DNA of 64,000 bases from a virus. Below, in pieces: positions 7,248-45,490 of this stretch (the stretch's first letter is position 1; the number at the start of each line of letters is the position of its first letter). The translations under genes were made by a program, and so were the position numbers. The stretch lies in the IMG/VR virus record IMGVR_UViG_3300045539_000120, positions 1 to 64,000 of that record; one strand, 5' to 3'. The notes beneath the pieces are model-generated. The model did not search any database and was not told the origin of the DNA. It worked only from the letters and a program-made list of their open reading frames with translations.

Positions 7248-7251
7248 CTTC

Positions 7252-10592: not shown

Positions 10593-10609
10593 TCTTTTTG
10601 TATTAAACG

Positions 10610-10840
10610 TTAATCTAAACTAATACTTCGATTTTTATCGTCAGACGATACATTTGTTCGATATGCGTATAAAGGACCCTTTCCTCCAACTGTCGACGAA
10701 CTTGTATTTATTGTTTCAGATATTCCTTTAAATGATTCAATAGATTCCTCGACGATTACTGTTTCTATTTCAGGTAAACTTTCATCCATCGATATTATAT
10801 CGATTTCAATAGATTCTACTTCATCTTCTAAACCATCCAT
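10610..10840 (-). CDS. acidic hypothetical protein
   Basis: 76 aa, D/E-rich. Confidence 0.3.
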   Translation of the reverse strand: MDGLEDEVESIEIDIISMDESLPEIETVIVEESIESFKGISETINTSSSTVGGKGPLYAYRTNVSSDDKNRSISLD

Positions 10841-10908
10841 TAATGTAGCATCCCATTCTGAAATTTCATCATCGCTATATGTAAATTCTATAGATTCCTC
10901 TATACTAT

Positions 10909-11424: not shown

Positions 11425-11620
11425 CTTGTTCTTTATTTTTATAAAATACTTTATTAACTAAAAGGTTTGGATCGTTTAAAGCTTCCTCGCGGGGACCACA
11501 TCCACAGTCCTCATATCCTAAGGCTCTAGCGATTCGTTGTGCCGCTTGATCTGCATGTAGAAATTTAGCTACTTTAGCTATATCACTACCAAACCCTTCT
11601 GACTTTTTTTCAATTGCCAT
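11405..11620 (-). CDS. hypothetical protein
   Basis: 71-aa ORF. Confidence 0.35.
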   Translation of the reverse strand: MAIEKKSEGFGSDIAKVAKFLHADQAAQRIARALGYEDCGCGPREEALNDPNLLVNKVFYKNKEQDEDIKE

Positions 11621-11910
11621 TATTTAATACCTTCTAAATCTTTTATTTCTTTTTCGATTTGAGTTTGTCTTTGTACATCTAACATTTTTCTGTCAGTTGC
11701 TTGAATCATTCTCTTTTCAACATTTAATCCTTCGATTTTAATATCGGTTGCAGATGGTAATGAATCAATTACGATTTTTTCAATACGAGCCTCTTTTTTA
11801 AGAGTTGTAACTTCTGAATCAATTGAACATGTTTTTAACCAAGTTAAAATTATAAATGTTAGAATTAATTTAGTACCATGTTTTTCTAAAAATAGATTTA
11901 TCTTTTCCAT
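11620..11910 (-). CDS. membrane-anchored or lipoprotein-like coiled-coil protein, spanin candidate
   Basis: N-terminal hydrophobic segment ending LKTCSI then a charged coiled-coil region. Confidence 0.3.
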   Translation of the reverse strand: MEKINLFLEKHGTKLILTFIILTWLKTCSIDSEVTTLKKEARIEKIVIDSLPSATDIKIEGLNVEKRMIQATDRKMLDVQRQTQIEKEIKDLEGIK

Positions 11911-11954
11911 AATTTGTTTATTTTTAAGTGTTTATTGCTATTATATATTCCTAT

Positions 11955-13043: not shown

Positions 13044-13044
13044 A

Positions 13045-13716
13045 TTAAAAATTTGTTTTGGTTGTATTTTTGCCTTTATTTATTGATTTGTGAAATTCTA
13101 TTATTTTGTTCATTGCCTCTTCTGCTGAATCTACTATTCTAAATAAATCAAAATCTTTGTCACTCATTTTACCATCCGCTAAGACCGTATTTCTAAGCCA
13201 ATCAACAAGACCTGTCCAATATTCTTTTCCTACCAAAACTATTGGGTATTTTACATTATGTCCACATTGTGCTAATGTAATTGCTTCAAACATCTCATCC
13301 AAAGTTCCTACACCTCCTGGGAAAATTACAAATCCTTGAGAGTATTTAAGAAACATTACCTTTCTCGTAAAGAAATATCTATTTTCAACTCCTTTATCAA
13401 CGTATGGATTCATACCTGCTTCGAATGGTAATTCAATTCCAATTCCAATAGATTTTCCACCAACTTCTTTAGCTCCTTGATTTGCAGCTTGCATGATTCC
13501 AGGACCTCCTCCTGTAATTACACCGAATCCTTCTCTACTTATAAGTGCTCCAAACTTTCTTGCTTCATTATACCATCTGGTATTTACTTCCGTTCTTGCA
13601 CTTCCAAAAATTGAAATACATGGAATATTTAAATCATTAAATGTATCGAATCCTTTTGTAAATTCTGCCTGAATCCTTAGGATTTGCCAGGTATCTTCTG
13701 CCTTATTATTTCTCAT
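13045..13716 (-). CDS. LOG-family protein (nucleotide 5'-monophosphate nucleosidase / cytokinin riboside 5'-monophosphate phosphoribohydrolase-like)
   Basis: GGGPGIM and PGGVGTLDE motifs. Confidence 0.7.
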   Translation of the reverse strand: MRNNKAEDTWQILRIQAEFTKGFDTFNDLNIPCISIFGSARTEVNTRWYNEARKFGALISREGFGVITGGGPGIMQAANQGAKEVGGKSIGIGIELPFEAGMNPYVDKGVENRYFFTRKVMFLKYSQGFVIFPGGVGTLDEMFEAITLAQCGHNVKYPIVLVGKEYWTGLVDWLRNTVLADGKMSDKDFDLFRIVDSAEEAMNKIIEFHKSINKGKNTTKTNF

Positions 13717-14470
13717 TATATTGTTTTAAACGTTTCATGAATTCTTTAAAATAGTATTTCATATCATTATATGTCATTGTGAATATCTGTGGCTTTTCAT
13801 CTATTTCATTAGCCATCCATACTTCGCATCCTGTGGGTACAATTCCAGTTCTTTCATAAAATGCAACCGAATAACCTGCAACTTGACAAAAATAATCTTC
13901 TATCCACTCATCTCTCTTTGGTTTTCTACTATTTTTATAATCAATAATTAGTACTTTGTTTCCGACCATTTCCGAAGCATTATCGAGAGTACCTGCATAA
14001 CCTCGCTTAGACCATATAAATTTCTCTGCTGCCAATACTTTAACTACTCTATCAAAAAAATCTTCATGGTGATTCCAAAACTTCATAAAGAATTCCCATC
14101 CAGCCTTTAACCAAACATCTCCACTGGGATCCTCGTTAAATTGATTGACCTCTTCGTCAGTTGATGTAATAACATGTAGTTGTGATAAACGCTCTGTGGG
14201 TGTACCCTTTATGCCTTTATATAATTCAATAAGACGATGCATTATAGTTCCTCGGTTCATTGACAGATTTGAGATTCTATCTGCCTCTTCATGGCCTATT
14301 TTATTTCGCCATTCATCAAGACCACCTTTGTCCTTTGTTTCACCAAGAATTGTTGTCATGCTTGGAAAGATTCCAATTACAATATCATCTACTGTTACTT
14401 TATAATGCCTTAATCCGTTTACATCAACTCGCTCAATATGTTCGCTCATGCAAATGCTGAAATTAACCAT
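13706..14470 (-). CDS. PD-(D/E)XK nuclease-like protein (YqaJ/lambda-exonuclease-like)
   Basis: IIDYKNSRKPK ... YFCQVAGYSV resembles the D..(D/E)xK...QxxxY core; weak. Confidence 0.35.
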   Translation of the reverse strand: MVNFSICMSEHIERVDVNGLRHYKVTVDDIVIGIFPSMTTILGETKDKGGLDEWRNKIGHEEADRISNLSMNRGTIMHRLIELYKGIKGTPTERLSQLHVITSTDEEVNQFNEDPSGDVWLKAGWEFFMKFWNHHEDFFDRVVKVLAAEKFIWSKRGYAGTLDNASEMVGNKVLIIDYKNSRKPKRDEWIEDYFCQVAGYSVAFYERTGIVPTGCEVWMANEIDEKPQIFTMTYNDMKYYFKEFMKRLKQYNEK

Positions 14471-15109: not shown

Positions 15110-15186
15110 TGGCGGTTCCAGTGGGATTCGAACCCACGACCTCCGCCGTGACAGGGCGGCGTTGTAACCAACTCTACTATGGAACC
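15110..15186 (-). tRNA. tRNA-Asp(GTC), CCA encoded
   Basis: hand-folded cloverleaf: acceptor GGTTCCA/TGGAACC, anticodon loop CTGTCAC, T-loop GGTTCGAATCC, 3' GCCA. Confidence 0.8.
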
Positions 15187-15195
15187 AATTTAAAG

Positions 15196-15269
15196 TAGTC
15201 AATAATGGACTCGAACCATTGACCTCCTCGGTATCAGCGAGGCGCTCTAACCAACTGAGCTAAATGACT
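15196..15269 (-). tRNA. tRNA-Ile(GAT)
   Basis: acceptor AGTCATT/ATTGACT (one mismatch), D-arm GCTCAGTTGGTTAGAGC, anticodon loop CTGATAC. Confidence 0.75.
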
Positions 15270-15699
15270 ATATATTCTTACCTCGATATGTTGAAGTTTG
15301 ACTATGGCAATTTGGACATAATATCCTTAGATTATCTAATTTATGATTAGTTCTATTGCCATCAATATGGTCTAATTCTAAAGATATATGATTATCCATC
15401 CACATACCTATATTACATATCTCACATTTATGTTCTTTAATACCTTCTCTTATCAACCTAATTCTTAATTTATTAGTTTGATAACTAGGGTGGTTTCCAA
15501 TTAAAATATCACTTAATTCTATTTTTGAACCATTGTGTCTTTTATTAGTACCCTTTCCTGATTGATTAGGATTATATACGTTTAAATCGATCGCTTTCTT
15601 TTTAAATGTATTAAAATGCATCTTTAATATAGCGGCTGCTTCGCTCATAGATTTTGCATTCTTGCACACATCTATTATTTGTTCATTTGTATTTTCCAT
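15268..15699 (-). CDS. HNH homing endonuclease
   Basis: CEICN...HIDGNRTNHKLDNLRILCPNCH HNH motif; inserted between tRNA genes. Confidence 0.75.
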   Translation of the reverse strand: MENTNEQIIDVCKNAKSMSEAAAILKMHFNTFKKKAIDLNVYNPNQSGKGTNKRHNGSKIELSDILIGNHPSYQTNKLRIRLIREGIKEHKCEICNIGMWMDNHISLELDHIDGNRTNHKLDNLRILCPNCHSQTSTYRGKNI

Positions 15700-15750
15700 A
15701 TTATATATATCTAAACACTAGTGACAAATTTTCCAACGTGTTAATTATAG

Positions 15751-15834
15751 TACCCAGGGCCAGACTCGAACTGGCACGGACATACTGTCCACAAGAGTTT
15801 AAGTCTTGCGTGGCTACCATTACACCACCTGGGC
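15751..15834 (-). tRNA. tRNA-Leu(TAA), type II with long variable arm
   Basis: acceptor GCCCAGG/CCTGGGT, anticodon loop CTTAAAC, variable hairpin GGACAGTATGTCC. Confidence 0.75.
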
Positions 15835-15921
15835 AGTTTTAATATTTAACAGGATAACCTTTTGTTGAGTTTACAGATTCAAGTTTTTAATTTGCTGAAT
15901 GTATCCTTCAATAAATATTAG

Positions 15922-15995
15922 TGGAGGTGACAGGAATCGAACCTGCGACCCTCTGCGTGCAAGGCAGATGCTCTAGCCAACTGAGCTACACCCCC
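15922..15995 (-). tRNA. tRNA-Ala(TGC)
   Basis: acceptor GGGGGTG/CACCTCC with G3-U70, anticodon loop CTTGCAC. Confidence 0.8.
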
Positions 15996-27251: not shown

Positions 27252-27749
27252 TTATTCTACGTCTTTTAATTCTGTTCTTAATCTACCAATTGCAGACTCC
27301 ATTGTATTATAGAGTGGGATATTATATCTGCTGCAAACTATATCTACATTACCTTTACGATAAAATCCATCTGGACAACATACTATTATTTTACATGAAG
27401 TAGCATACAATCCAAGTTCTAATAAACTAATTGGACTCTTTGTTTCTGGTGAAAAGTACATGAAAATAATGTCAGCTTTGTCAAGGTGGTCTAATTCCCA
27501 ATTAACTTGTTCACTAAATTGAGGACTGGATTCTGTTTGTTCCCAACTAGAATCCCAATCATTGCGTCTAGGATTTAAGAATATCAATTCTTCGCGATCT
27601 TTAAATATTTGTGGAATTACAGCTTGCCAATCTTCGGCTTTACCCATTTCTATAGAACCCGCTAAGAAAATAGTGGTATTATTACTTAGTGCTTCTTTAT
27701 ATGGTGGTTTAATTACTTTCATTTTTGTTTGTGTATTATATTTGTACAA
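27252..27749 (-). CDS. nucleoside 2-deoxyribosyltransferase-like protein (Rcl/NDT family)
   Basis: IFLAGSIEMG N-terminal motif and overall length and architecture. Confidence 0.5.
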   Translation of the reverse strand: MYKYNTQTKMKVIKPPYKEALSNNTTIFLAGSIEMGKAEDWQAVIPQIFKDREELIFLNPRRNDWDSSWEQTESSPQFSEQVNWELDHLDKADIIFMYFSPETKSPISLLELGLYATSCKIIVCCPDGFYRKGNVDIVCSRYNIPLYNTMESAIGRLRTELKDVE

Positions 27750-27994
27750 TTTCCTTTATGTGAACCCCATTGAAAGTTACCCATTCCAACTACAATATAT
27801 TCACAACCTTCAAGAGTGTATGTCCTATAAGTTCTATCAGAATATTGTGAAGTACTATCTAATTCGTAACGACTAGCACTAGTATTTTGATGTGGGTCTT
27901 TATAATTTTCTGGTTTGCAGCTAGTAACCATAAAGATTACTAGTGCAGCCAAGATTATTATTATTAATGGTATGGGTGAGTTTTGTCTATTCAT
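27719..27994 (-). CDS. small secreted or lipoprotein-like protein
   Basis: hydrophobic N-terminus ending VTSCKP. Confidence 0.35.
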   Translation of the reverse strand: MNRQNSPIPLIIIILAALVIFMVTSCKPENYKDPHQNTSASRYELDSTSQYSDRTYRTYTLEGCEYIVVGMGNFQWGSHKGNCTNIIHKQK

Positions 27995-29493
27995 TATAGA
28001 TTAGTTAAACGTTTTCTAATTTCTGTCAAAGTAGTTTGGTTTTCTAATTGGCCATTGATATAGATAGTTTTTAACATTCCTTTACTCTCATCTTCCCATG
28101 AGCATTGATCGACTAGCATATAACAATCGTTAATACTTTTATTAAAAATTTTAGCAACATGCAATAAACCTTTTGCAGATTTCTTAACACCATCATCTGT
28201 GATTGGATCTTTAAAGATTTCACGACCTTCGATTGTGTAAGCTGGACTTCCAGATTCTGCTGGATGTTTAACTTCTACATAGGTGGCTTTCATTGCAAAA
28301 CCAAATGTATCTCTAGTGTTATATTGGTATGTAAAACTTCCAACACCTAATACAATATTTGTACTTGCAAAACCTTTTGCCTCTAATCTTGTGAAGATTT
28401 GTTCAGCACGGTCTAATGTAATACTGTCTCCGTAGATTGCTCCAATATGAGGGTCTAATACTTTATAACCTTGGTCGTTAATAGTTCCACCAAATACATC
28501 CCAAAGTAATTCAATAACTCCTTTATCTTGTGGCATTGTTCCAGGAATACTGTACTCACAACCACAAATAATATCTACTGGATCACCAGAGTCAGGTCTA
28601 ATAACTACTTTACCATCACGGGCTAAAATCTCTTCTTTCAAAGTAACGATATGTTCGGTACAAACTTTCCATAAATCCCAAGTATCTGATACAATTGAAA
28701 GAATTCCTGTTGGATATGTTTCCATCAAGTTTCTAAATGTTCCAACCTCATCTTCTTTACTTCCAGCACACATCACTGAGTGTTCAGTCGCATTCACAGA
28801 TCCAGATACAAATCCAGTTTCATTATAGAATTTACGTGCTCCAAAGATTGCTGGTAAACTGTCTGAACCTGAGAAACTTGTCAAGTGACCTAATCCTGAA
28901 CTAATAGTTGCATCAATAGAATCCATACCTCTCATTGAGAAATCATGTGCTTGCCAATCTACGAACCAACCTTTTTCAGCATCAGTTTTTTCTTGCCATG
29001 AAGTAAATAATTTACGATATGCATGCGCAATAGTTGCAGAAGTCATTGGTTTCCATAACAGGTTAGAAATAACTGTTTCTAAATAATTTGTAATCCAATA
29101 GAAATCCGGATGTGTATTATAAATTGTCAATACTGGAACTCTCATTGGTACTAAACTACCTTCTTCAATTGATTTAACAACGATAGGCAAATAACCTAAA
29201 TCATGTAAAGCTTCGAAGTGAGATACGTCATAGTCTGTATTTAAATACATTGACAATTCATTTTTCATTTCTCCACAAACTTCATCTTTAGGTTTACTAA
29301 AGAAATCTTTTTCAAAAGCTTCGTGAATTTGTTTAACTACCATTTGTTGTCCAAATGATACTAATTGATCGCAACCTTGGGGTGCGTACTTATTACTACG
29401 AGGAGTAAAGTTAGAATAAACCAACGTTGTTCCTTTTGGATATTGTTGGTGATGTCCTGTTTTGTAACCGTCTGTTAAGAATAATGGATTCAT
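27994..29493 (-). CDS. nicotinamide phosphoribosyltransferase-family protein (NadV/NAMPT-like; could be a Namat-type enzyme)
   Basis: N-terminal NPLFLTDGYKTGHHQQYP signature and ~500-aa length. Confidence 0.75.
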   Translation of the reverse strand: MNPLFLTDGYKTGHHQQYPKGTTLVYSNFTPRSNKYAPQGCDQLVSFGQQMVVKQIHEAFEKDFFSKPKDEVCGEMKNELSMYLNTDYDVSHFEALHDLGYLPIVVKSIEEGSLVPMRVPVLTIYNTHPDFYWITNYLETVISNLLWKPMTSATIAHAYRKLFTSWQEKTDAEKGWFVDWQAHDFSMRGMDSIDATISSGLGHLTSFSGSDSLPAIFGARKFYNETGFVSGSVNATEHSVMCAGSKEDEVGTFRNLMETYPTGILSIVSDTWDLWKVCTEHIVTLKEEILARDGKVVIRPDSGDPVDIICGCEYSIPGTMPQDKGVIELLWDVFGGTINDQGYKVLDPHIGAIYGDSITLDRAEQIFTRLEAKGFASTNIVLGVGSFTYQYNTRDTFGFAMKATYVEVKHPAESGSPAYTIEGREIFKDPITDDGVKKSAKGLLHVAKIFNKSINDCYMLVDQCSWEDESKGMLKTIYINGQLENQTTLTEIRKRLTNL

Positions 29494-29576: not shown

Positions 29577-29780
29577 TTAATTTTTTCTAATTCCTGTTAC
29601 CATTACATATTTAAACGTTCCATTTGATAAAAACGTATGTTGAATAAATGTTACCTCGTATGTTGCGGCTTTTTCCATTGTTATTAATTCATCTATTAAT
29701 GGTTTTTCAACTTCGCAAATAAAATCATGTTCGCAAACACCTTTATTCATTAGGATAAATCTACACTTCGTCATTGTCAA
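29577..29780 (-). CDS. hypothetical protein
   Basis: 67-aa ORF. Confidence 0.3.
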   Translation of the reverse strand: MTMTKCRFILMNKGVCEHDFICEVEKPLIDELITMEKAATYEVTFIQHTFLSNGTFKYVMVTGIRKN

Positions 29781-30564
29781 TATTTTTAGATGGGTTTAAC
29801 AATCCTCTAATAAAAAATCTGTCCTGGGTAAATGTTGGAGTTTCAATAACTTGCCATTTGTTTCTGGTAAAAGTTCCGTTATCATTTGTTGTTGTAACTT
29901 CAACTTTAGCAATCGCTCCTCCTCTTTTCTTACGGAAATCATAATCATTCCAATTAATTCCTTTTTGGAAGATAAATTCTTGCATTTGATCAGTTTTAAC
30001 TCCATGCAGTTCTTTAGTACTATAAAGGCTTTGTGCAACTGAAGAGATACTATTTCTTACAGCATCTTGCTGTCTCCAGATAAAATAGTTTTCTACCTCA
30101 TCAATAAATGGAATTTGAAATGCTCTAGCATCGAATTCTGCCATTCTCATTGCTTTAATATGCTCAGGTTCCAGAAATATTTGACTATTTCTCATCATCC
30201 TCATCATTCGGAGTCTGTTAAATTCTGAGGTTGCCATAGATGCAGCAACACTTACCATTTTCTGCAGATTATTGTCGAACCAAGCATGAGTTCCTAAGTC
30301 ATCAAAGTCTGTTAGGACTAAACTAATCTCATCTGATTGTACATAACCAAATTTAGCACCTTGAATATTCTTACAAAGATATGCAGTAGTTGCATTCATA
30401 TCTTCAATAAGACCCTCATCAAATGGTCTTGTTAATCCTTTAGTGTAAGTGTGGAATGCCTTACCATCAATTCTAATAATTGTGTAAGTTCTTCGTGGAA
30501 GTTTGATTCTAGTTCTATCCTCATAGAACTCTTTCATTCTGTCGCCAAGTGCGTCATTTTTCAT
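29761..30564 (-). CDS. Thg1-like protein (tRNA-His guanylyltransferase family, 3'-5' nucleotide addition enzyme)
   Basis: TIIRIDGKAFHTY, RPFDEGLIEDM and YVQSDEISLVL align with the conserved Thg1/TLP catalytic core (VVRLDGRNFH..., SDEYSFVF). Confidence 0.55.
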   Translation of the reverse strand: MKNDALGDRMKEFYEDRTRIKLPRRTYTIIRIDGKAFHTYTKGLTRPFDEGLIEDMNATTAYLCKNIQGAKFGYVQSDEISLVLTDFDDLGTHAWFDNNLQKMVSVAASMATSEFNRLRMMRMMRNSQIFLEPEHIKAMRMAEFDARAFQIPFIDEVENYFIWRQQDAVRNSISSVAQSLYSTKELHGVKTDQMQEFIFQKGINWNDYDFRKKRGGAIAKVEVTTTNDNGTFTRNKWQVIETPTFTQDRFFIRGLLNPSKNIDNDEV

Positions 30565-30895: not shown

Positions 30896-31369
30896 TTATT
30901 TAATTTGATTTTTAACTAAATTTAATGCTTGTCCTAAAAGGTTTAAACCTAACCAATAAGATGGGTCATCAATTCCTTCTGCATTTTCATCAAGTCCAAT
31001 ACCCCAAATATTATCTAATGGAGATGCTTCAACAAAAAAGCGATCACCTGTGTTTAACATTTCGTATCTTAATTCAGGATTTTGTTTGAATTTTGCCAAG
31101 TTTCCTTCATAAACAATTGCCAAACAATTTTTATCCCAAGTTGCTTTATCAAAATTTTGGATTTGTCTACCATATTTCTTTTGCTCTCTTGGATTCGTTT
31201 CTTGCATAATTTGTTCTGCAATATCTTCATCTCCAAATAACAATGCTTTTTGATGCATCATATATTGTTCACAAGAATTATATTCAATATTGTCAATTGT
31301 CATTGGCGCTTTATGCCATTGTGAGTAAATTCCATTCCAGAAAAATACATGTTTGTCTGTGATTTTCAT
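30896..31369 (-). CDS. NADAR-domain protein (YbiA-like)
   Basis: VFFWNGIYSQW...EQYMMHQKALLFGD...IWGIG pattern of NADAR/DUF1768. Confidence 0.65.
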   Translation of the reverse strand: MKITDKHVFFWNGIYSQWHKAPMTIDNIEYNSCEQYMMHQKALLFGDEDIAEQIMQETNPREQKKYGRQIQNFDKATWDKNCLAIVYEGNLAKFKQNPELRYEMLNTGDRFFVEASPLDNIWGIGLDENAEGIDDPSYWLGLNLLGQALNLVKNQIK

Positions 31370-31372: not shown

Positions 31373-31945
31373 TTATGGTTTATAAATTACTACTGACACT
31401 TTCATGTCTTTTAGTTCTGTTTGAATAATCTTTTTAATTCTGTTCCAATCTCCACCCGCTAATCCTGCACCAATCTTTGGCAATCCAATATGTTTACCAC
31501 TAAATACATTATTGATTTTTCTCATACAAAGGGTTAGTGCTTCGTAATCCAAAGGTTTTGAAACTCCATCGGTATGATTCTTACCATAACGAAATTGGGT
31601 GTATGAATTCACAACCGATAATTCAGGTTCATTCAATTTATTGTCAGCATCCTCTAAAGACCAAATAGCATTTTCTCCAATAACGAATTCTTGCCAATCA
31701 ATACAACCAAGTTTTTCAATTGTTGCACCCCAAAGTTCCATTTCAAATTTATCAACTCCAAATGCCTTTGCCATTTGAGGTGCAATTCCAGCTCCCATAT
31801 TTGAAAGACAATTACAACCATGCGTAATTACATCAAAAGTACCTTGCTTTGCTAATGTAATTAAATCACCTTCAATTTCTTGATATGTTGTTTGTTCATT
31901 AGTTTCTATCGCCGATTTTATAAAATCATTAAGTTGTCTTTTCAT
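31373..31945 (-). CDS. macro-domain protein (ADP-ribose binding/processing)
   Basis: ITHGCNCLSNMGAGIAPQMAKAFG matches the macrodomain N.xN..L..G.G core. Confidence 0.6.
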   Translation of the reverse strand: MKRQLNDFIKSAIETNEQTTYQEIEGDLITLAKQGTFDVITHGCNCLSNMGAGIAPQMAKAFGVDKFEMELWGATIEKLGCIDWQEFVIGENAIWSLEDADNKLNEPELSVVNSYTQFRYGKNHTDGVSKPLDYEALTLCMRKINNVFSGKHIGLPKIGAGLAGGDWNRIKKIIQTELKDMKVSVVIYKP

Positions 31946-32457
31946 TATGCAAATCTAAATTGTTTTAAAAACTCTCTTAAGAATACGATTCTTCGAGCCT
32001 CTTGTTCATCAAATTTCATCATCCAATCCCAGTAGCTTGTTGCTTCTGGAGTTCCATCGACATAAAAAGTTCCATCATATTCTGGCCAAGTAACTTTGTC
32101 AAATACTCTGTCATCAACTAAAAAAACTACTGCAGTTAATTGGTCACCTAAATCTGGTTCAAAGAAACTACGAAATTGAACACCTTCGTCTGATAATAAT
32201 TGTCTATGATTATTTAAAGAACCGATATGGTCATGACCTAGCACAAACCTAGTGTTTGTTGTTCCTCCATTTAAAATGATAAAAGTTTTGTCTTCTTTGG
32301 CCCATTTCTGGTATTCTGGAGTTTCAAAAAACTCTAATCCATATTCTACAACAGCATGTCCAAACTGAATGCCTTGTTGGATTGGGCTTATGTTGTAAGG
32401 CACCAATCCATACATTCTATATGTTCTATTGCTCATTAGTAGTTTCCTCTGGAGCAC
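31945..32457 (-). CDS. hypothetical protein
   Basis: 170-aa ORF between macro-domain and PRS-like genes. Confidence 0.45.
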   Translation of the reverse strand: MLQRKLLMSNRTYRMYGLVPYNISPIQQGIQFGHAVVEYGLEFFETPEYQKWAKEDKTFIILNGGTTNTRFVLGHDHIGSLNNHRQLLSDEGVQFRSFFEPDLGDQLTAVVFLVDDRVFDKVTWPEYDGTFYVDGTPEATSYWDWMMKFDEQEARRIVFLREFLKQFRFA

Positions 32458-35654: not shown

Positions 35655-35900
35655 TTAATAAGTATTAGTGATTTGTGTTGTTAGTATATGTGTATCTCTT
35701 TCCTGTGATTCGATTCCTAATGATATGGATTTTCCATAAGCAATTGCTTTAATCTGATCATCTTTTTCATCAAATATAAATCTTACAAATCCGGCTCCTG
35801 TTGCGATTTCATTGTGACCAACCATATCTTTATGTTGGATTGCAGCCGAGAATATGATGGCACATCCATCGACTATTACGTATTTTGCTGAACTTAACAT
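35655..35900 (-). CDS. hypothetical protein
   Basis: 81-aa ORF. Confidence 0.35.
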   Translation of the reverse strand: MLSSAKYVIVDGCAIIFSAAIQHKDMVGHNEIATGAGFVRFIFDEKDDQIKAIAYGKSISLGIESQERDTHILTTQITNTY

Positions 35901-38347: not shown

Positions 38348-39088
38348 TTATTTTTTCTCAAATGTAGGTTTTAACCACATACCATCTTTAAAAACAAGAT
38401 TTAAAAATCCTGGAATAACTTGGTCAATATCTACCAATAATCTAAGACTTCTTGGAGTATCGTGTGCCATCATTTTAAATATTTCTTCTCTAATTCTTTG
38501 GCCGCTTACGGTTTGCTCAAGTTTCTTCAGGATGTTTGGTTGTTTCATTGCCTCCCAAATATCATCACTCATAATGAAATCCTTTGTAACTGTAAATCTC
38601 AATGCTCTTAATATTCTTAATGGGTCATCCATTAGGGTAACTTTAGCATCCATTGGAGTACGTAAAATACCAACCTTTAAATCTTCAATACCTCCAAAAA
38701 GATCAATAATGTTTCCATCAATATCTTCTGCTAAGGCATTTAAGGTAAAATCTCTACGAAGTAAATCATCTTCTAAAGTACCTAATTCTAAGATTGGTCT
38801 ACGAGTTCCTTTCGTGTAACCTATTTCCTTACGAGCCATTACAAAATCTGCAACCAGTCCTGCAAATTGATGGTCCTTTGGAAACTTGGCGCGAATTGTA
38901 AAACAATCTGGAGTACTTAAGAATATTTCAAATCCTTGGTCCGTCATCCAGTTCGTCATGATTTGAAAACCATCTTCAACTGTAAATCCTTTGGTATCTT
39001 CTAATACGAATGTGAAATCTATATCTTTGGAATCTACACCAAGGAATTTATCCCTGATGCAACCTCCTACTTTAAATATTTTTGCCAT
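38348..39088 (-). CDS. tRNA nucleotidyltransferase (CCA-adding enzyme / poly(A)-polymerase head-domain family), minimal form
   Basis: VGGCIRDKFLGVDSKDIDF (GGxVRD...DxD) and RRDFTLNALA motifs; start placed at MAKIFKVGG. Confidence 0.7.
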   Translation of the reverse strand: MAKIFKVGGCIRDKFLGVDSKDIDFTFVLEDTKGFTVEDGFQIMTNWMTDQGFEIFLSTPDCFTIRAKFPKDHQFAGLVADFVMARKEIGYTKGTRRPILELGTLEDDLLRRDFTLNALAEDIDGNIIDLFGGIEDLKVGILRTPMDAKVTLMDDPLRILRALRFTVTKDFIMSDDIWEAMKQPNILKKLEQTVSGQRIREEIFKMMAHDTPRSLRLLVDIDQVIPGFLNLVFKDGMWLKPTFEKK

Positions 39089-39095
39089 TTTTATC

Positions 39096-39449
39096 TTAAT
39101 TAAATAAGGTACTTGGTGCACCTACGTTATACATTAAACTTGCGAAGAATTTAAAACCTTTATATGAAGTTCCATCCGCACTTCCAATTGCATTCATTAA
39201 ATCATTACCTACAAATGCCTGAACAAATCCACCTCCTTGATAACCAACCCCCCATTTTGTACAAAGAATCGATGTACCTATTTGGATAATATGATTCTTT
39301 TCAGATTCTGGTAATTCAGATAAATTTAACCATTGAGCATTTTCAGCAAAATAATTAGTTACTACTTCTTTTACGATTTCAATTTGGTCTACTGTGTTCA
39401 TATTGTTTATGTTTTTAATTATAATGTAAATATAACTAAAAAAAGCCAA
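39096..39449 (-). CDS. hypothetical protein
   Basis: 117-aa ORF. Confidence 0.4.
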   Translation of the reverse strand: MAFFSYIYIIIKNINNMNTVDQIEIVKEVVTNYFAENAQWLNLSELPESEKNHIIQIGTSILCTKWGVGYQGGGFVQAFVGNDLMNAIGSADGTSYKGFKFFASLMYNVGAPSTLFN

Positions 39450-40466: not shown

Positions 40467-40979
40467 TTATTTTCCAATAAAAAGATAATCTTTCCACTCT
40501 TCTGGAATATGGTCAATAGTTTTCATTAACATCAAATAATGTGGTCTCTTTGGATTTGGAATTTCTTTACCATATTCCTCAAGGCTAAGATCTGCCTTTT
40601 CACCATTACATTTTCTGCATGCTGTAACAAGATTCTCCCAACTGTTTGGTCCACCCTTACTTTGTGGAATAACATGGTCAAGTGTTAGTACCTTTCTATT
40701 TGTTTGTCCACAATAAACACATGTCCATTCATCTCTTTTAAATACATTATCTCTGGTTAATGGAACACTCACATGTCTAGTATTTACATACTTAGGAACT
40801 CTAATGATAGATGGTTTGTGTAAAATAACAGTAGGATCGCACATATTAAATGTTGCATCATGGTTTTGAACAATACTAGCGTTTCCCTTATACACAATGA
40901 CAAAGGATCTTAAGCTACTAATAATACTACGAGGAATATAGCTTGAATCTAACACTAATGTTTTTGAATATTTGTCCAT
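40467..40979 (-). CDS. HNH endonuclease
   Basis: CVYCGQ...LTLDHVIPQSKGG...WENLVTACRKCN. Confidence 0.75.
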   Translation of the reverse strand: MDKYSKTLVLDSSYIPRSIISSLRSFVIVYKGNASIVQNHDATFNMCDPTVILHKPSIIRVPKYVNTRHVSVPLTRDNVFKRDEWTCVYCGQTNRKVLTLDHVIPQSKGGPNSWENLVTACRKCNGEKADLSLEEYGKEIPNPKRPHYLMLMKTIDHIPEEWKDYLFIGK

Positions 40980-41095
40980 GTTTTTATTTAATAGTATAAC
41001 ATATTGGTAATAATTTGGGTGTAAGGACGGTACCGCCCCGTCTTCTCAAGATTCACAGTCTTGCACTTCACTAAAAAGCTTCGAACACCATATAA

Positions 41096-41152
41096 TTTGG
41101 GAAACGGTAGGATTCGAACCTACGAAGACCTCCGTTGTCTCATTTCCCCTTT
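41096..41152 (-). tRNA. tRNA-like minihelix (~54 nt: acceptor stem + 4-bp hairpin + canonical T-arm, no D-arm)
   Basis: minus strand GGGAAAT-GAGACAACGGAGGTCTTC-GTAGGTTCGAATCCTAC-C-GTTTCCC-A; 7-bp acceptor with one G-U. Confidence 0.3.
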
Positions 41153-41514
41153 GTACCGACTACAAGTTACGCTCTTGTCTGAAAATACTTATGAGATATT
41201 TTCGATCCTAGATCAAGTCGGCAATTATACTCCATACCCATCACGTTAAGGCTGATTATGGGCGACGCAACCTACGGTCAACTTTCGTTATGGAGTTTGC
41301 GGAAAGCAGAGGTATCGATCCCCATACCATTAAAGGTACGATTCGCTTAGCAAGCGGTCCTGAATCCTATTCAGTTTACTTTCCATTTAGAGAGACTTTG
41401 GGTCTTTCAGGGTTACTGGTTAAATGCAATGAGTGAGCTCTTCCTACTACTAACCCTTTTTCAGAAATTAATACACTCTACCTTTTAACTACAGCTTAAA
41501 CTGTCTCTCTATTG

Positions 41515-41594
41515 TACCCAGGGAGAGACTCGAACTCTCAAGCTTTCGCCACGGCTTCTAAGACCGCTGTGTCTACCAATTCCACCACCAAGGC
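41515..41594 (-). tRNA. tRNA-Leu(TAG), type II
   Basis: T-arm GAGAGTTCGAGTCTCTC, acceptor GCCTTGG/CCTGGGT (one mismatch), anticodon loop CTTAGAA, variable hairpin GCGAAAGC. Confidence 0.6.
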
Positions 41595-41691
41595 ATAAAG
41601 CCAATCCCGTAGATTGGCCGCTCAACTTAAGGTATTGAGTTTGCAAGAATAAATCTCTGACCAGGTCATGCGTCCTTTGGGCGCCGACAGT

Positions 41692-41763
41692 GACCCCGGT
41701 GGGACTCGAACCCACGACTCCCTGATTAAAAGTCAGGTGCTCTACCAACTGAGCTACGAAGTC
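41692..41763 (-). tRNA. tRNA-Lys(TTT)
   Basis: acceptor GACTTCG/CGGGGTC, D-arm GCTCAGTTGGTAGAGC, anticodon loop CTTTTAA. Confidence 0.8.
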
Positions 41764-41820
41764 TTGCCTTTTTTAGAGTTTTTATAGAACTCAAGGATAG
41801 TACAACCTATAAACTAAAGT

Positions 41821-41892
41821 AGCGGGTGAGGGACTCGAACCCCCGACCTTAAGCTTATGAGGCTCACGAGATACCAACTTCTACCAACCCGC
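41821..41892 (-). tRNA. tRNA-Met(CAT)
   Basis: acceptor GCGGGTT/CACCCGC, anticodon loop CTCATAA. Confidence 0.6.
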
Positions 41893-41903
41893 AATATATC
41901 TTG

Positions 41904-41975
41904 TAGTCAATAAAGGACTCGAACCCTTATTCCCGAGTTCGTAGCCCGGTGTTCTATCCATTGAACTAATCGACT
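41904..41975 (-). tRNA. tRNA-Arg(ACG)
   Basis: acceptor AGTCGAT/ATTGACT, anticodon stem CCGGG/CTCGG, loop CTACGAA. Confidence 0.75.
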
Positions 41976-41977
41976 AA

Positions 41978-42054
41978 TGGTGGTCCATTCAGGACTCGAA
42001 CCTGAGACCTACTGATTATGAGTCAGGCGCTCTAACCAACTGAGCTAAAAGACC
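41978..42054 (-). tRNA. tRNA-Met or tRNA-Ile2(CAT), CCA encoded
   Basis: D-arm GCTCAGTTGGTTAGAGC, anticodon loop CTCATAA, 3' ACCA. Confidence 0.65.
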
Positions 42055-42059
42055 ATTAA

Positions 42060-42470
42060 ATAATAAGTTGTTCCATACCGAACTATTAGGAACTATTAGG
42101 GCTTCTCGGACGAGGTGCACAACCCATAACGGCTATGATATGTTCTCTGTTACTTGGCTCCACCTACATGGATTAATCAGGAATCGAACCCACCTAATCG
42201 ATATATGCCTATATCAATGTTCACAGCATATCAACTTATCATTTTGCACAAGCAGAAGGGGTCGAACCTTCATCATCGGTTTTGGAGACCGGTATGCTAC
42301 CATTGCACCATACTTGTATTTTGTGGGAGATTATGGAATCGAACCATACCCTCTTACAGAACGATTTTACAGACCGCTTACATCACCAGATGCTGAAACC
42401 TCCCAAATTTAACTACCACCTGACTCCTTTCGAGCAGTGGAAACTCGTATCATTCAATTTTGGTAGTTAG
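42060..42470 (-). tRNA. tract of tRNA-like elements and fragments with aberrant arms
   Basis: several minus-strand T-loop signatures (RC of ggaatcgaacc, ggtcgaacc, ggaatcgaacc) without canonical full cloverleafs on hand-folding. Confidence 0.3.
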
Positions 42471-42471
42471 C

Positions 42472-42545
42472 TCCCCAGCTAGGACTCGAACCTAGGACCC
42501 CCTGATTAACAGTCAGGTGCTCTAACCAACTGAGCTACTGAGGAA
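42472..42545 (-). tRNA. tRNA-Asn(GTT)
   Basis: acceptor TCCTCAG/CTGGGGA, anticodon loop CTGTTAA, T-arm CTAGGTTCGAGTCCTAG. Confidence 0.8.
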
Positions 42546-42780
42546 TATTGTTGACTAATAAGGATTTGAACCTTAATCCTGTGTCCGCCCTCAGTCACTT
42601 CCGTACTTACTAACTTCTACTGTGCACCATACACCATAATCATTCCGAATGTTTCGAACCATTCAGTCTTAAGATTAATTACTTCTTAAGATTTGTTGCG
42701 ATTAGAGGAATCGAACCTCTCAGTGGTATATCTACCAAATCGTCTCATGAGAACGAACCTACACCGATATCGCAATTTAG
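42546..42780 (-). tRNA. tract of tRNA-like elements
   Basis: includes acceptor+T-arm minihelix TGACTGA...TAAGGTTCAAATCCTTA-TTAGTCA; a perfect 8-bp palindromic hairpin TCTTAAGA-agtaattaa-TCTTAAGA; further T-loop-like motifs. Confidence 0.3.
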
Positions 42781-42782
42781 TG

Positions 42783-42856
42783 TCTTTACATGGGATTCGA
42801 ACCCATACTCTTCGGGCTCAGTGCCCGCGTTCCAAACCAAGTTAAACTACGTAAAG
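42783..42856 (-). tRNA. tRNA-Gln(CTG)-like (4-bp anticodon stem)
   Basis: acceptor CTTTACG/TGTAAAG, anticodon hairpin CGGG-CACTGAG-CCCG, T-arm TGGGTTCGAATCCCA. Confidence 0.4.
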
Positions 42857-42954
42857 CAATCAATTAAAATTACAGAAATTAGTGTCGACAAATTTCTTTA
42901 AGCTATATGTAATCTTAATCGTTAGGAAGATATTGCTGATCAGGCATCTTCTTT

Positions 42955-43062
42955 GTAATTATGATTGGATTCGAACCAATTTCAGCTTTACAATAAAGAG
43001 TATATTTCAACTCAACCTTTGTGAGGTGCCGCCAACCAATGGCCTCATAATCATTTGTGGAT
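42955..43062 (-). tRNA. tRNA-like element with long extra arm and no readable standard anticodon
   Basis: acceptor GATTATG/CATAATT (G-U at bp 1) and T-arm ATTGGTTCGAATCCAAT. Confidence 0.25.
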
Positions 43063-43547
43063 AGAAACCAGACCTATCCTAGAGCTGCAGCTCTGTTATA
43101 ACTTATGCATCATCCTCAATGCTTCAACCCTTTGGCTATTACGGGTGTGGACTCGAACCACATTTTTCAGTTACCTATGCTTTTTCAAACTTGGTTTTAG
43201 TTGCTTTCCTTGCGCAAGGTTCATAACTAATTTCCAGTATCACCACGAGGAGGTGTTTGATTGATACCGCTACGCTTCGTTGGTACTTGCCGTTTCTTAA
43301 GTCGACACTTTCCCCGTTGCACGTTTTATTTAAGTGTACTTCCCTACTAGCGTCCTTGAAGCCAACACTTTTTAATTTGAGCTGCCTTATTACTAAGGTT
43401 TCGGATCGCATCTTTGATTAGGTAGCGAACCTATCATTAACGTCTCAAAGTAATTGTTAGTCTTTTCCTTACCTCTTAATAATTACACTGCCCGTCAGAT
43501 GTTACTGTCTGATGCTTACCAATCATACTGGGGTAATTATTAAATTG

Positions 43548-43619
43548 TAACGCCACGGAGAATCGAACTCCGATTTTTAGGATGAAAACCTAATGTCCTA
43601 ACCGTTAGACGATGGCGTC
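43548..43619 (-). tRNA. tRNA-Glu(TTC)
   Basis: acceptor GACGCCA/TGGCGTT, anticodon stem TTAGG/CCTAA, loop TTTTCAT, T-arm CGGAGTTCGATTCTCCG. Confidence 0.7.
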
Positions 43620-43651
43620 ATTTAAATTATTATCAAGATGTCAAATAACGT

Positions 43652-43727
43652 TTGTTCTAATTTGTTATGTAAATATAACTATAATATTTGAACCATGAAA
43701 ACTTTTTTCCAAAAGTTATTAACAATT
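43652..43727 (-). promoter_or_regulatory. conserved intergenic element copy heading a tRNA operon
   Basis: tgtcaaataacgtttgttctaatttgttatgtaaatataactataatatttgaaccatgaaaacttttttccaaaagttattaacaat; nearest downstream minus-strand feature is tRNA-Glu, no ATG. Confidence 0.5.
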
Positions 43728-43731
43728 TTTG

Positions 43732-43803
43732 AGCGACTAGAGAGAATCGAACTCTCATCTTCAGATTGGAAGTCTGAAGTAATGACCATTATACGATAGT
43801 CGC
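43732..43803 (-). tRNA. tRNA-Gly(TCC)
   Basis: perfect acceptor GCGACTA/TAGTCGC, anticodon loop CTTCCAA. Confidence 0.8.
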
Positions 43804-43812
43804 ATTGTATTG

Positions 43813-43901
43813 TGCAAGAAGCTGGGATCGAACCAGCGGCACGTCCATGTTCCTTCCAACCGAAGTACTGGGGATTGCTCTACCAACTGAGCTATTCTTG
43901 C
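43813..43901 (-). tRNA. tRNA-like gene with canonical acceptor, D- and T-arms but expanded, unfoldable anticodon region (possible Tyr-GTA type or pseudogene)
   Basis: acceptor GCAAGAA/TTCTTGC, D-arm GCTCAGTTGGTAGAGC, T-arm GCTGGTTCGATCCCAGC; 39 nt between D- and T-arms contains CAGTACT. Confidence 0.35.
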
Positions 43902-44044
43902 ATTTGGGTAGGTCAGAGGCCTTCTGCCTACCGAGACCTCGTCGTTGAACTTCTGGAAGCCAGAGCGTACCGAGACACTTTTTAAATAAAAATCAGGATC
44001 GGTTTGTTTTTAGTGCTCTACCAACTGAGCTACTTGCTTTTCAT

Positions 44045-44115
44045 CAAGATACACAAGGTCGGATTCGAACCGACGACCACTGCTTTAAAAGAGCTGTTTG
44101 TTACTGTTTGCTGTA
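44045..44115 (-). tRNA. tRNA-like element (T-arm GTCGGTTCGAATCCGAC)
   Basis: T-arm plus CTTTTAA-like loop, but stems not canonical. Confidence 0.25.
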
Positions 44116-44136
44116 ACGATCCTTATTATTTTATTG

Positions 44137-44209
44137 AGCTTCTGACCGGGTTCGAACCGATGACATCTTCATTACAAGTGAAGTGCTCTACCAACTAAGC
44201 TACAGAAGC
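44137..44209 (-). tRNA. tRNA-Thr(TGT)
   Basis: perfect acceptor GCTTCTG/CAGAAGC, anticodon stem CTTCA/TGAAG, loop CTTGTAA. Confidence 0.8.
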
Positions 44210-44271
44210 AAATTAGAGTTTTCGTATTATTAAAGCCAATACCCGGAATAATCTCTCAACCAAAACACTAG

Positions 44272-44342
44272 TCCCCTCAGGTGGAATCGAACCACCGCCA
44301 ATTGCATGTAAAACAATTACGCTACCATTACGCCATGTGGGG
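44272..44342 (-). tRNA. tRNA-Val(TAC)
   Basis: acceptor CCCCACA/TGAGGGG (one A-A mismatch), anticodon stem ATTGT/GCAAT, loop TTTACAT. Confidence 0.6.
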
Positions 44343-44401
44343 AATTCTAATTCTACGCTCACAATATGTAGTTCTATGAATTAGTAACAGTCTCGTCTGT
44401 G

Positions 44402-44472
44402 TCTAATAGGCAGGATTCGAACCTGCGTACTCCTCAGTCCAAGTGAGGCATGTGACCTAGCTTCGCTACTAG
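44402..44472 (-). tRNA. tRNA-Pro(TGG)-like
   Basis: acceptor CTAGTAG/CTATTAG, perfect anticodon stem CCTCA/TGAGG with loop CTTGGAC; D-arm atypical. Confidence 0.45.
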
Positions 44473-44483
44473 AAATTTAATTT

Positions 44484-44562
44484 GTTGCCTATGAAGGTAC
44501 TGACCCTCCTCCGATGCTGTCAAAGAGCATTGTACCACCTTTATACGAATAGGCAAAAAGTT
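44484..44562 (-). tRNA. tRNA-Gln(TTG)-like with aberrant T-loop (probable pseudogene)
   Basis: acceptor GCCTATT/CATAGGC, anticodon hairpin ATGCT-CTTTGAC-AGCAT; T-loop lacks the TTCGA motif. Confidence 0.3.
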
Positions 44563-44566
44563 TCAG

Positions 44567-44639
44567 TGGACCCTACAGGAATCGAACCTGTTCCTCTAGT
44601 TCTTCAGACTAGCGTACGCACCAGCTATACCAAAGGTCC
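44567..44639 (-). tRNA. tRNA-Phe(GAA)
   Basis: acceptor GGACCTT/AGGGTCC, anticodon stem CTAGT/ACTAG, loop CTGAAGA. Confidence 0.75.
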
Positions 44640-44655
44640 ATCTATTATTACCAAT

Positions 44656-44750
44656 ATGTCAAATAACGTTTGTTTTAATTTCTTATACAAATATAACTAT
44701 TACATTTGAAATAAAAAAACTTTTAATGTTAAATTTATGTTAACATTTTT
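44656..44750 (-). promoter_or_regulatory. degenerate element copy heading a tRNA operon
   Basis: atgtcaaataacgtttgttttaatttcttatacaaatataactattacatttga...; shares an extra 5' segment (tgtcaaataacgtttgtt) with the 43652 copy. Confidence 0.4.
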
Positions 44751-44751
44751 G

Positions 44752-44822
44752 AGTTCAGTATTGGAATCGAACCAATATCTCAGAGTTTGCAATCCTGCGC
44801 CTAACCATTCGGCCAACCGAAC
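44752..44822 (-). tRNA. tRNA-Cys(GCA)
   Basis: acceptor GTTCGGT/ACTGAAC, anticodon loop TTGCAAA (as in E. coli tRNA-Cys), T-arm ATTGGTTCGATTCCAAT. Confidence 0.6.
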
Positions 44823-45125
44823 TTGTAAAATCAAAAAAGGACCAATCATTTCTGAAAGGTCCTTTTGAATATATTATATGTTAATAGCGCTTAGCTCATA
44901 CTAACATTTCTTTTTTCAAAAAGACCAACTTGCTTCCATTCATTATAAAAGGGACATATCGTGCCAACCATTCCTAGGACCGGTTGAAAACTATTTATAT
45001 GTTGCTGAGTTGTTTGCATTTTAATTGTTTTGTTCTTAATAAACAAGAGCGTTAATGTTCTTGTGTTAATTATATATCTATATATCTTTTTGTTTCAGTG
45101 AATTCACACTTTATTTAAATTATTT

Positions 45126-45413
45126 TCAAAAAAGTTCATTTCCATGATTCTTTATTATCTTTATGATAATATCTCCATGACATGGGCCTGGTTTGCACCA
45201 ACATCCAAGTGTCTTTCCTTTTAATTCTTGTAAACTTTCCATCAGTTCACTATTTGAAAGTAGATATTTTTCATATGCACTTATTGCTTCCTTTATTGTG
45301 TTTACTTTAAATTCTGCAAGTGTTCCATCTTTATGCGAATATGGATTTCCCCAAATACTTGGCCTTCCGATATAAACATCGTATGGTTCTTTATTTATAT
45401 GTACTACTTTCAT
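45126..45413 (-). CDS. DUF4326-like protein
   Basis: GRPSIWGNPY ... CWCKPGPCHGD pattern. Confidence 0.5.
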   Translation of the reverse strand: MKVVHINKEPYDVYIGRPSIWGNPYSHKDGTLAEFKVNTIKEAISAYEKYLLSNSELMESLQELKGKTLGCWCKPGPCHGDIIIKIIKNHGNELF

Positions 45414-45416
45414 TTG

Positions 45417-45490
45417 TGATTCGGACAGGATTCGAACCTGTGGCCTACGGTTTAGAAAACCGTTGCTCTATCCGGCTGAGCTACCGAACC
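45417..45490 (-). tRNA. tRNA-Arg(TCT)
   Basis: acceptor GGTTCGG/CCGAATC, anticodon stem ACGGT/ACCGT, loop TTTCTAA. Confidence 0.8.

Follow-up and report, generated by a model that had tools for sequence, protein, structure and literature searches.

A Thg1-like protein with a conserved active site in an uncultured phage and the recurrent linkage of its viral relatives to RNA-repair genes and tRNA arrays

The occurrence of tRNA-His guanylyltransferase (Thg1) in phages has been noted repeatedly. In 2013 gp143 of Bacillus phage Bc431v3 was highlighted as a tRNA-His guanylyltransferase possibly modifying phage or host tRNAs (PMC3601020), a phage enzyme of this kind was highlighted again in 2018 (PMC6292376), and a jumbo-phage survey of 2021 listed Thg1 among RNA-repair enzymes beside the CCA-adding enzyme and RNA ligases and assigned to it the restoration of 5' nucleotides (Iyer et al.; PMC7824862, section 3.4.9). 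Our literature search retrieved no experimental study of a phage Thg1-like protein (TLP). Here we describe the TLP gene in a stretch of 64,000 nucleotides of viral DNA, positions 1 to 64,000 of IMG/VR record IMGVR_UViG_3300045539_000120, which is referred to as the window. An earlier sequence-only reading of this DNA implied that a phage tRNA-repair role for such a protein would be new. This part did not stand, since phage Thg1 has been known since 2013 (PMC3601020), forms PHROG 4717, is present in 164 GenBank records and has had its role proposed (PMC7824862); it still holds that no experiment establishes that role. Phage Thg1 genes and the proposed function at tRNA 5' ends are already known, and the gene described here is an ordinary annotated member of the family.

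The protein most likely rebuilds the 5' ends of tRNAs as part of a phage set of enzymes for RNA and tRNA maintenance. It belongs to the Thg1/TLP family, its active site and fold are conserved, and related viral genes are recurrently linked to RNA-repair genes and tRNA arrays.

Family placement, active site and predicted action of the window TLP

The gene occupies positions 29761-30564 on the minus strand and is a real open reading frame (ORF) of 267 aa from ATG to stop; plus-strand translation across the same interval is riddled with stops. The sequence-only reading, which gave no strand, had drawn attention to three motif blocks in a 267-aa frame, and these are indeed present in the order described, as IIRIDGKAFH (residues 29-38), RPFDEGL (46-52) and YVQSDEISLVL (74-84). 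The Pfam profile Thg1 (PF04446) matches the protein over profile positions 2-130 of 130 with E=5.8e-30 and 104.3 bits, the gathering score being 29.2, and PHROG 4717, annotated as tRNA-His guanylyltransferase, matches with E=1.4e-86. No NCBIfam model matches the TLP, and the PADLOC defence-system models match neither the TLP nor three of its neighbours. The best sequence match in the PDB is BtTLP, the TLP of Bacillus thuringiensis (4kgk_A, E=7.2e-61, residues 4-254), weaker ones being the archaeal TLP 5axk (9e-6) and eukaryotic Thg1 proteins, with E values between 1e-11 and 1e-4. An AlphaFold2 model based on 39 sequences of the clade (pLDDT 77.7, pTM 0.78) retrieves the BtTLP chains first in a Foldseek search of the PDB (4kgm_C with E=4e-21 and a target-normalised TM of 0.83; E about 1e-21 for 4kgm/4kgk), followed by Candida Thg1, human Thg1 and MaTLP. 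All 32 significant Foldseek matches are Thg1/TLP proteins with their palm-like (RRM) fold, and the next class, GGDEF, appears only at E>0.01. Profiles, sequence, active-site residues and fold all place the 267-aa protein clearly in the Thg1/TLP family, and its proposed identity as a Thg1-like 3'-5' nucleotidyltransferase is borne out on all four counts.

Functional residues of BtTLP were mapped onto the phage protein by pairwise alignment, their roles being taken from PMC3701042. The carboxylates D30, D75 and E76 of BtTLP (D29, D76 and E77 in hTHG1) align with D33, D78 and E79, so that the absence of catalytic carboxylates, which would have spoken against the assignment, is ruled out. The three are the predicted catalytic carboxylates of the phage TLP, D33 and D78 matching the metal carboxylates and E79 being the third. 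Identical residues are also found at the positions of BtTLP E12, R28, H35, S74, K99, R131 and R147, which correspond to E15, R31, H38, S77, K102, R147 and R164. Together with R46 these are the predicted residues for binding and activation of the nucleoside triphosphate. The sole substitution among the mapped catalytic and activation residues is the conservative change of K43 to R46. In the 39-sequence clade alignment the mapped positions are invariant except H38 (at least 90%) and position 46, where arginine is usual and lysine is found in P0105.

The motif HINNLYN, which is specific to eukaryotic enzymes, is replaced by VRNSISS in the phage protein (WRQQDAVRNSISS versus WRQVDCHINNLYN in Candida Thg1), which identifies the phage protein as a TLP of the bacterial type; with the TLP as query, BtTLP is retrieved with E=7e-61 versus 1e-11 for the best eukaryotic Thg1. 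Judged from its homologues the protein is predicted to be catalytically intact, bacterial-type and template-dependent. A beta-hairpin is predicted at about residues 215-240 (strands 215-227 and 230-240 of the AlphaFold2 model), the length and sequence of which vary among relatives; R234, by contrast, is the same throughout the clade alignment. In MaTLP a hairpin and R215 read the tRNA elbow and set the stop point of elongation (PMC4820378). By position, the modelled hairpin with R234 may be comparable to these elements.

We infer that the TLP is active, that tRNA is its substrate and that the damage at the 5' end stems either from a host defence nuclease or from imprecise 5' processing. By homology with BtTLP and MaTLP, it would bind a tRNA that lacks one or a few nucleotides of its 5' strand, and the beta-hairpin would read the elbow and so measure the length of the acceptor stem. 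A 5'-monophosphate would be activated with ATP or GTP, or a 5'-triphosphate be used directly, and nucleotides would then be added in the 3'-to-5' direction, each of them templated by Watson-Crick pairing with the 3' strand of the acceptor stem. Addition would halt at position +1 or, in tRNA-His, at G-1 opposite C73. The TLP would in this way form the 5'-end arm beside RNA ligase, polynucleotide kinase/phosphatase and CCA-adding enzyme, in a maintenance set that could preserve the many phage tRNAs, and perhaps those of the host, in a usable state in the course of infection.

Homologues of the TLP were detected by tblastn in 164 GenBank phage records, all with less than 60% identity, from phages of Bacillus, Prevotella, Caulobacter, Mycobacterium, Brevundimonas, Erwinia, Vibrio and other hosts; among the GenBank phage matches listed, most are annotated as tRNA-His guanylyltransferase. 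The GenBank phage collection holds no DNA-level relative of the window. Metagenomic relatives of the TLP are abundant, and matches at 70-96% identity often lie on contigs of 165-370 kb. The GC content of the window is 32%, nearly all of its long ORFs are on the minus strand, and its terminase is T4-like, the nearest record being the uncultured huge phage LR756500 (51%), followed by jumbo phages of Flavobacterium, Tenacibaculum and Sphingomonas (about 30%). On the basis of these terminase relatives the window is assigned to an uncultured T4-like jumbo phage; a Bacteroidota host would be a guess.

Gene neighbourhoods of viral TLP genes

Every ORF of the window was compared with 80 IMG/VR TLP loci (L numbers), each comprising a TLP gene with 10 kb on either side. 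Among loci with a TLP of 49-69% identity, the recurring neighbours are homologues of the RNA ligase, the HAD_SAK_2 protein, the CCA enzyme, the phrog_3668 protein and the phrog_14949 protein of the window, often at a distance of 10-1400 bp, and the adjacent repair-type neighbours are encoded on the same strand as the TLP:

RNA ligase homologue: 56 bp from the TLP gene in L153 (from the comparison of window ORFs)
RNA ligase homologue: 98 bp from the TLP gene in L150
RNA ligase homologue: 453 bp from the TLP gene in L117
RNA ligase homologue: 1.4 kb from the TLP gene in L122
HAD_SAK_2 protein: 141 bp from the TLP gene in L112
HAD_SAK_2 protein: 628 bp from the TLP gene in L110
CCA enzyme: 1.3-2.3 kb from the TLP gene in L122, L110 and L150
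phrog_3668 protein: within about 7 kb of the TLP gene in nine loci with TLP identity below 70%
phrog_14949 protein: 10-15 bp from the TLP gene in L151 and L156
L153 (IMGVR_UViG_3300023082_000011), 9992-13722, one strand: operon of TLP, RNA ligase (Rnl), Pnkp and metallophosphoesterase (Metallophos)

In the L153 operon the TLP gene (9992-10840) is followed after 8 nt by Rnl (10848-12170), which overlaps with Pnkp (12160-13044, AAA_33 and HAD_PNKP domains), and the metallophosphoesterase gene comes next. The CCA enzyme is encoded close to the TLP in 16 of the 80 loci, and the phrog_3668 protein is the most persistent neighbour beyond the close clade. Furthermore, the TLP gene is embedded in tRNA arrays in L118, L126, L127, L130, L155, L167 and L086. 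These neighbourhoods in divergent viral contigs support the assignment of the TLP to a repair module, and the tight TLP-Rnl-Pnkp operons argue that the rebuilding of 5' ends belongs to phage RNA healing.

The window itself contains the following repair genes:

2025-3149, minus strand: ATP-dependent RNA ligase (PF09414 RNA_ligase and PHA02142 OB domain; DRB0094/Rnl5-like)
4518-4913, minus strand: AAA_33 P-loop kinase, polynucleotide-kinase-like
5701-6309, minus strand: phrog_14949 protein, inside the ligase-kinase-HAD cluster
6678-7364, minus strand: HAD_SAK_2 protein ('Swiss Army Knife' RNA-repair HAD phosphatase domain)
38348-39121, minus strand: tRNA nucleotidyltransferase/CCA-adding enzyme for 3'-end completion and repair

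The phrog_14949 protein has no Pfam match, and an AEP (primase-polymerase)-like fold is predicted for it. The CCA enzyme is unusually short (257 aa) and according to its Pfam matches consists of head and neck domains only. All parts of a repair toolkit, namely RNA ligase, kinase, HAD_SAK_2 protein, CCA enzyme and TLP, are present in the window, but in dispersed form. The genomic context that had been noted from the sequence, about 20 tRNAs with an RNA ligase, a polynucleotide-kinase-like kinase and a CCA enzyme, is confirmed by the 24 tRNAs that ARAGORN detects and by the genes at 2025-3149, 4518-4913 and 38348-39121. The tRNA/RNA repair toolkit deduced from this context stands as an inference, on the strength of Rnl, Pnkp, HAD_SAK_2 and CCA enzyme genes beside the TLP in unrelated contigs; it has to be separated from the claims of novelty and of a phage lacking tRNA-His.

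The genes that immediately surround the TLP in the window are of a different kind:

27252-27749, minus strand: nucleoside deoxyribosyltransferase-like protein
27994-29493, minus strand: NAMPT-like protein
30896-31369, minus strand: NADAR protein
31373-31945, minus strand: macro-like protein
31945-32457, minus strand: phrog_3668 'hydrolase', 170 aa
32784-33680, minus strand: PRS-like protein

The order of the genes related to nicotinamide adenine dinucleotide (NAD+) around the TLP recurs in relatives of about 250 kb. Among the 80 loci, NAD genes accompany the TLP almost only where it is at least 70% identical, which speaks for synteny by descent and against a functional link. An NAD+-linked function of the TLP, as could be deduced from its NAMPT-like, PRS-like, NADAR and macro-like neighbours, was rejected, since co-localisation is confined to the close clade. 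The TLP gene lies between the NAMPT-like and the PRS-like gene, together with the NADAR and macro-like genes. As a pair, the two outer genes are reminiscent of NARP1 (Namat and Adps), a pathway for NAD+ reconstitution known from phages. The phrog_3668 'hydrolase' has neither a Pfam match nor a PDB sequence match.

Two further small genes were observed near TLP genes. A YqeY/GatB-like gene (PF09424) is present in L001 (8842-9300) and in 14 further TLP loci; it lies directly downstream of the TLP gene, sometimes overlapping with it, in at least 11 relatives. This partner is absent from the window, where a 67-aa ORF (29577-29780) occupies its place. An 81-aa ORF of the window (35655-35900, minus strand) has a homologue 41-47 bp from the TLP gene in L110-L113 (TLP identity 67-68%).

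Several points weigh against a role of the TLP in tRNA repair. We know of no defence nuclease that shortens tRNA 5' ends, and the damage to be repaired is hypothetical. In the window, the ligase/kinase cluster lies about 23-27 kb from the TLP gene and is not adjacent to it, and the neighbours conserved in the close clade are genes for NAD+ salvage and ADP-ribose. Neighbourhood counts amount to guilt by association and ignore phylogeny. The Pfam profile Thg1C scores 15.4 bits, below its cut-off of 26.3 bits; in this C-terminal region the phmmer alignment to BtTLP reaches residue 254, and that of the model to 4kgm spans about 255 columns. The change of K43 to R46 affects a lysine that positions ATP for adenylylation, and the BtTLP variant K43A shows an approximately 10-fold lower adenylylation while guanylylation is unchanged (PMC3701042). 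Finally, as stated in 2016, none of the bacterial or archaeal TLPs had an established biological function (PMC5041481).

tRNA genes of the window and alternative functions of the TLP

ARAGORN detects 24 tRNAs in the window, all on the minus strand, 22 of which are confirmed by Rfam at gathering score. They cover 19 amino acids, histidine alone being missing. Both arrays and the elements that follow the main array are listed here:

15110-15995, minus strand: second tRNA array (Asp, Ile, Leu, Ala)
41514-45490, minus strand: main tRNA array with 19 ARAGORN tRNAs
41296-41388, minus strand: block B, type-II Ser(GCT)-like tRNA-like RNA with the loop TTGCTAA (anticodon GCT)
41142-41226, minus strand: block C with a CAT anticodon loop, tiny D-loop and 8-bp anticodon stem
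41090-41149, minus strand: D-armless minihelix
41017-41089, minus strand: cryptic tRNA-His-like gene of 73 nt with anticodon GTG and a perfect His anticodon stem-loop

The tRNAs of the main array are the presumed substrates of the phage enzymes for tRNA end maintenance. N73-C74 is encoded without C75-A76 in 22 of the 24 tRNAs. As these 22 lack an encoded CCA end, the phage CCA enzyme is probably needed for routine maturation. C74 is encoded in 23 of the 24 despite the 32% GC genome. Odd calls on the minus strand are a 'Tyr' of 90 nt whose anticodon stem pairs poorly (43812-43901), a weak Gln(ctg) (42782-42857) and an 87-nt Pro (3527-3613); a sub-threshold YrlA (Y-RNA-like)/tRNA-like signal lies between tRNA-Thr and the 90-nt 'Tyr' (44012-44107, minus strand).

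The syntenic arrays of the relatives L009, L018 and L015 end with a tRNA-His. In the window, the positional counterpart of the canonical tRNA-His of L009 and L018 is the cryptic gene at 41017-41089, which is homologous to the L009 tRNA-His and has a copy of 96% identity in L008. Its acceptor helix spans 8 positions (G-1:C73), C74 is encoded, the D-loop lacks GG and the T-loop reads GGCGGTA; the gene is reported neither by ARAGORN nor by Rfam, even at E values up to 5. The 'tRNA-His-less set' of the sequence-only reading has therefore to be given up, and with it the idea that such a set needs Thg1, since the His-like gene carries an encoded G-1. Downstream of the His-like gene, where the array ends, an HNH endonuclease gene (40467-40979, minus strand) begins after about 40 nt; in L008 this place is taken by a tRNA-Gln(ttg).

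The cryptic tRNA-His bears the possibility that its transcript is a client of the TLP in a 'His mode', and one may ask whether the TLP is a dedicated tRNA-His guanylyltransferase that adds G-1 to phage or host tRNA-His for charging by histidyl-tRNA synthetase. The window gene has C73, TLPs are able to add G-1 opposite C73 in an anticodon-dependent His mode (PMC4820378; DdiTLP2, PMC6471195), the TLP gene and a tRNA-His gene are separated by 27 nt in L118 and by 71 nt in L086, and the odd elbow and acceptor mismatches of the His-like gene could render RNase P cleavage at -1 unreliable. We nevertheless regard this specialisation as unlikely. G-1 is encoded in the genome opposite C73 in the window His-like gene and in all His genes with the same alternative elbow, and it is encoded in most of the canonical tRNA-His genes of relatives as well. 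The eukaryotic tRNA-His-specific motif HINNLYN is absent, TLP genes show no enrichment of tRNA-His in their vicinity (4 of 137 tRNAs in TLP loci, 2 of 43 within 1.5 kb), and the recurrent protein neighbours are general RNA-repair enzymes. Maturation of the eukaryotic type, in which G-1 is not encoded and is added opposite A73, was likewise considered and rejected, as G-1:C73 is encoded.

The His-like gene is one of a larger group. Its 17-nt T-arm occurs in 23 viral contigs, and about 19 of the matches lie inside tRNA-like genes with anticodons for His, Lys, Thr, Ala and Ile, the tRNA-Ala having G3:U70. Variants of the T-arm with covarying T-stems are present in L126, a TLP locus, and in L175. 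When 13 sequences with this alternative elbow are fitted to the cloverleaf, 94% of the positions are paired and 18 of the 22 pairs show compensatory changes; none of 500 shuffles reaches this level, and slid controls are 32-50% paired. The 13 sequences are paralogous tRNA types, for which covariation is expected if they are real tRNAs. MAFFT realignment misplaced the G-1 gap and an earlier alignment was used instead. The extra 5' G is limited to the His members, those for Lys, Thr and Ile being without it. The class, defined by the T-loop GGCRGTA and D-loops lacking G18G19, recurs in L126 (about 2040-5160), L171, L175, L176, L179, L183 and L188 with the identities His, Lys, Thr, Ala (G3:U70), Ile and Asp.

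The 424-nt 'spacer' between the His-like gene and the main array (41090-41513, minus strand) consists of blocks that are 80-97% conserved in the tRNA arrays of relatives. Block B has a 6-bp D-stem, a 4-bp T-stem, a long variable arm and G73-C74, with compensatory changes in 13 of 28 predicted pairs. Its shape is reminiscent of an allo-tRNA or tRNA-Sec. In block C, 11 of 24 predicted pairs are compensatory. Our literature search found nothing specific on such non-canonical phage tRNAs. These hidden odd tRNAs are a more novel by-product of the analysis than the TLP gene itself. ARAGORN and Rfam miss conserved tRNA-like genes with a non-standard elbow, which means that the tRNA repertoire of a phage can be misjudged and that a claim like 'no tRNA-His' can be false.

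With low confidence we put forward that the TLP may not be, or not only be, an anti-defence repair enzyme and could instead serve as a maturation or quality-control factor for these hidden non-canonical phage tRNAs. Its clients might, just as tentatively, be the tRNA-His with G-1:C73, T-loop GGCRGTA and a D-loop without G18G19, the Ser(GCT)-like RNA and the CAT tRNA-like RNA. It is conceivable, if doubtful, that host RNase P, which reads the elbow, sets the 5' ends of these RNAs imprecisely and that the TLP, which would measure from the elbow too, rebuilds them.

A restoration of 5' nucleotides on RNAs other than tRNA, be it phage or host small RNAs or cleaved mRNAs prior to ligation, appears similarly doubtful. 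In its favour, DdiTLP4 is robust on non-tRNA substrates (5S rRNA, small non-coding RNAs) and non-tRNA substrates of prokaryotic TLPs were deemed a distinct possibility (PMC5041481), and the operon partners Rnl and Pnkp are not specific for tRNA. On the other hand, the closest characterised homologue, BtTLP (52% identity), repairs tRNA, the model has a putative elbow-reading hairpin with a conserved arginine, and the TLP gene often resides inside tRNA arrays. 5' editing of the mitochondrial type, that is the replacement of mismatched nucleotides at positions 1-3 of phage tRNAs, is the sole proven in vivo role of a repair-type TLP (DdiTLP3) and could draw on 1:72 mismatches in a few window tRNAs (T.T in Met(cat), 41819-41893; G.A in the weak Gln(ctg)), but is very improbable because 1:72, 2:71 and 3:70 are standard pairs in 21 of the 24 tRNAs, with two of the weakest predictions among the exceptions, and no partner 5' nuclease is evident.

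The rebuilding of tRNA 5' ends within a maintenance set is the function that we favour over these alternatives. TLP-encoding phages with large tRNA sets and repair genes provide a tractable setting for finding the function of prokaryotic-type TLPs.

Comparison with known systems

The window TLP shares the fold and the predicted template-dependent repair chemistry, and may share an elbow-reading beta-hairpin, with MaTLP from Methanosarcina acetivorans (PDB 5AXK-5AXN) and with Dictyostelium TLP3 and TLP4, although sequence identity to these proteins amounts to only about 20-24%. The 5' editing of mismatched mitochondrial tRNAs by DdiTLP3 does not fit the tRNAs of the window.

Much closer is BtTLP (PDB 4KGK/4KGM), the best fold match, with 52% identity across about 232 aligned residues. 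Both proteins belong to the same size class, lack HINNLYN and have in common the three carboxylates and the residues E12, R28, H35, S74, K99, R131 and R147 of BtTLP. They differ in K43 and M158 of BtTLP, which are replaced by R46 and S175 in the phage protein. In the helix region 120-140 the latter is longer by about 16 residues, and its variable beta-hairpin is longer as well. The phage protein is encoded by a jumbo phage of 32% GC, whereas BtTLP is chromosomal.

Among phage proteins, the PHROG 4717 members of Bacillus phages Bc431v3 (gp143), Hobo (gp168) and BM15 belong to the same family and share 48-51% identity with the window TLP. Their phages, like the one studied here, are large myoviruses that encode tRNAs and, separately, a nucleotidyltransferase, but the window TLP is situated in an island of NAD+-salvage and ADP-ribose genes.

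The gene sets described by Iyer et al. (2021), comprising RNA ligases, polynucleotide kinases/phosphoesterases, RlaP, CCA-adding enzyme, Thg1 and PTH2 (PMC7824862), have their counterpart in the RNA ligase, kinase, HAD_SAK_2 protein, CCA enzyme and TLP of the window. The logic is also the same, Thg1 restoring 5' nucleotides and the CCA enzyme 3' ends (PMC7824862). While Thg1 is 'sporadic' according to these authors, who report no operon, the IMG/VR contigs analysed here exhibit tight linkages of the TLP gene with Rnl and Pnkp as well as with genes for the HAD_SAK_2, CCA-adding and predicted AEP-like proteins.

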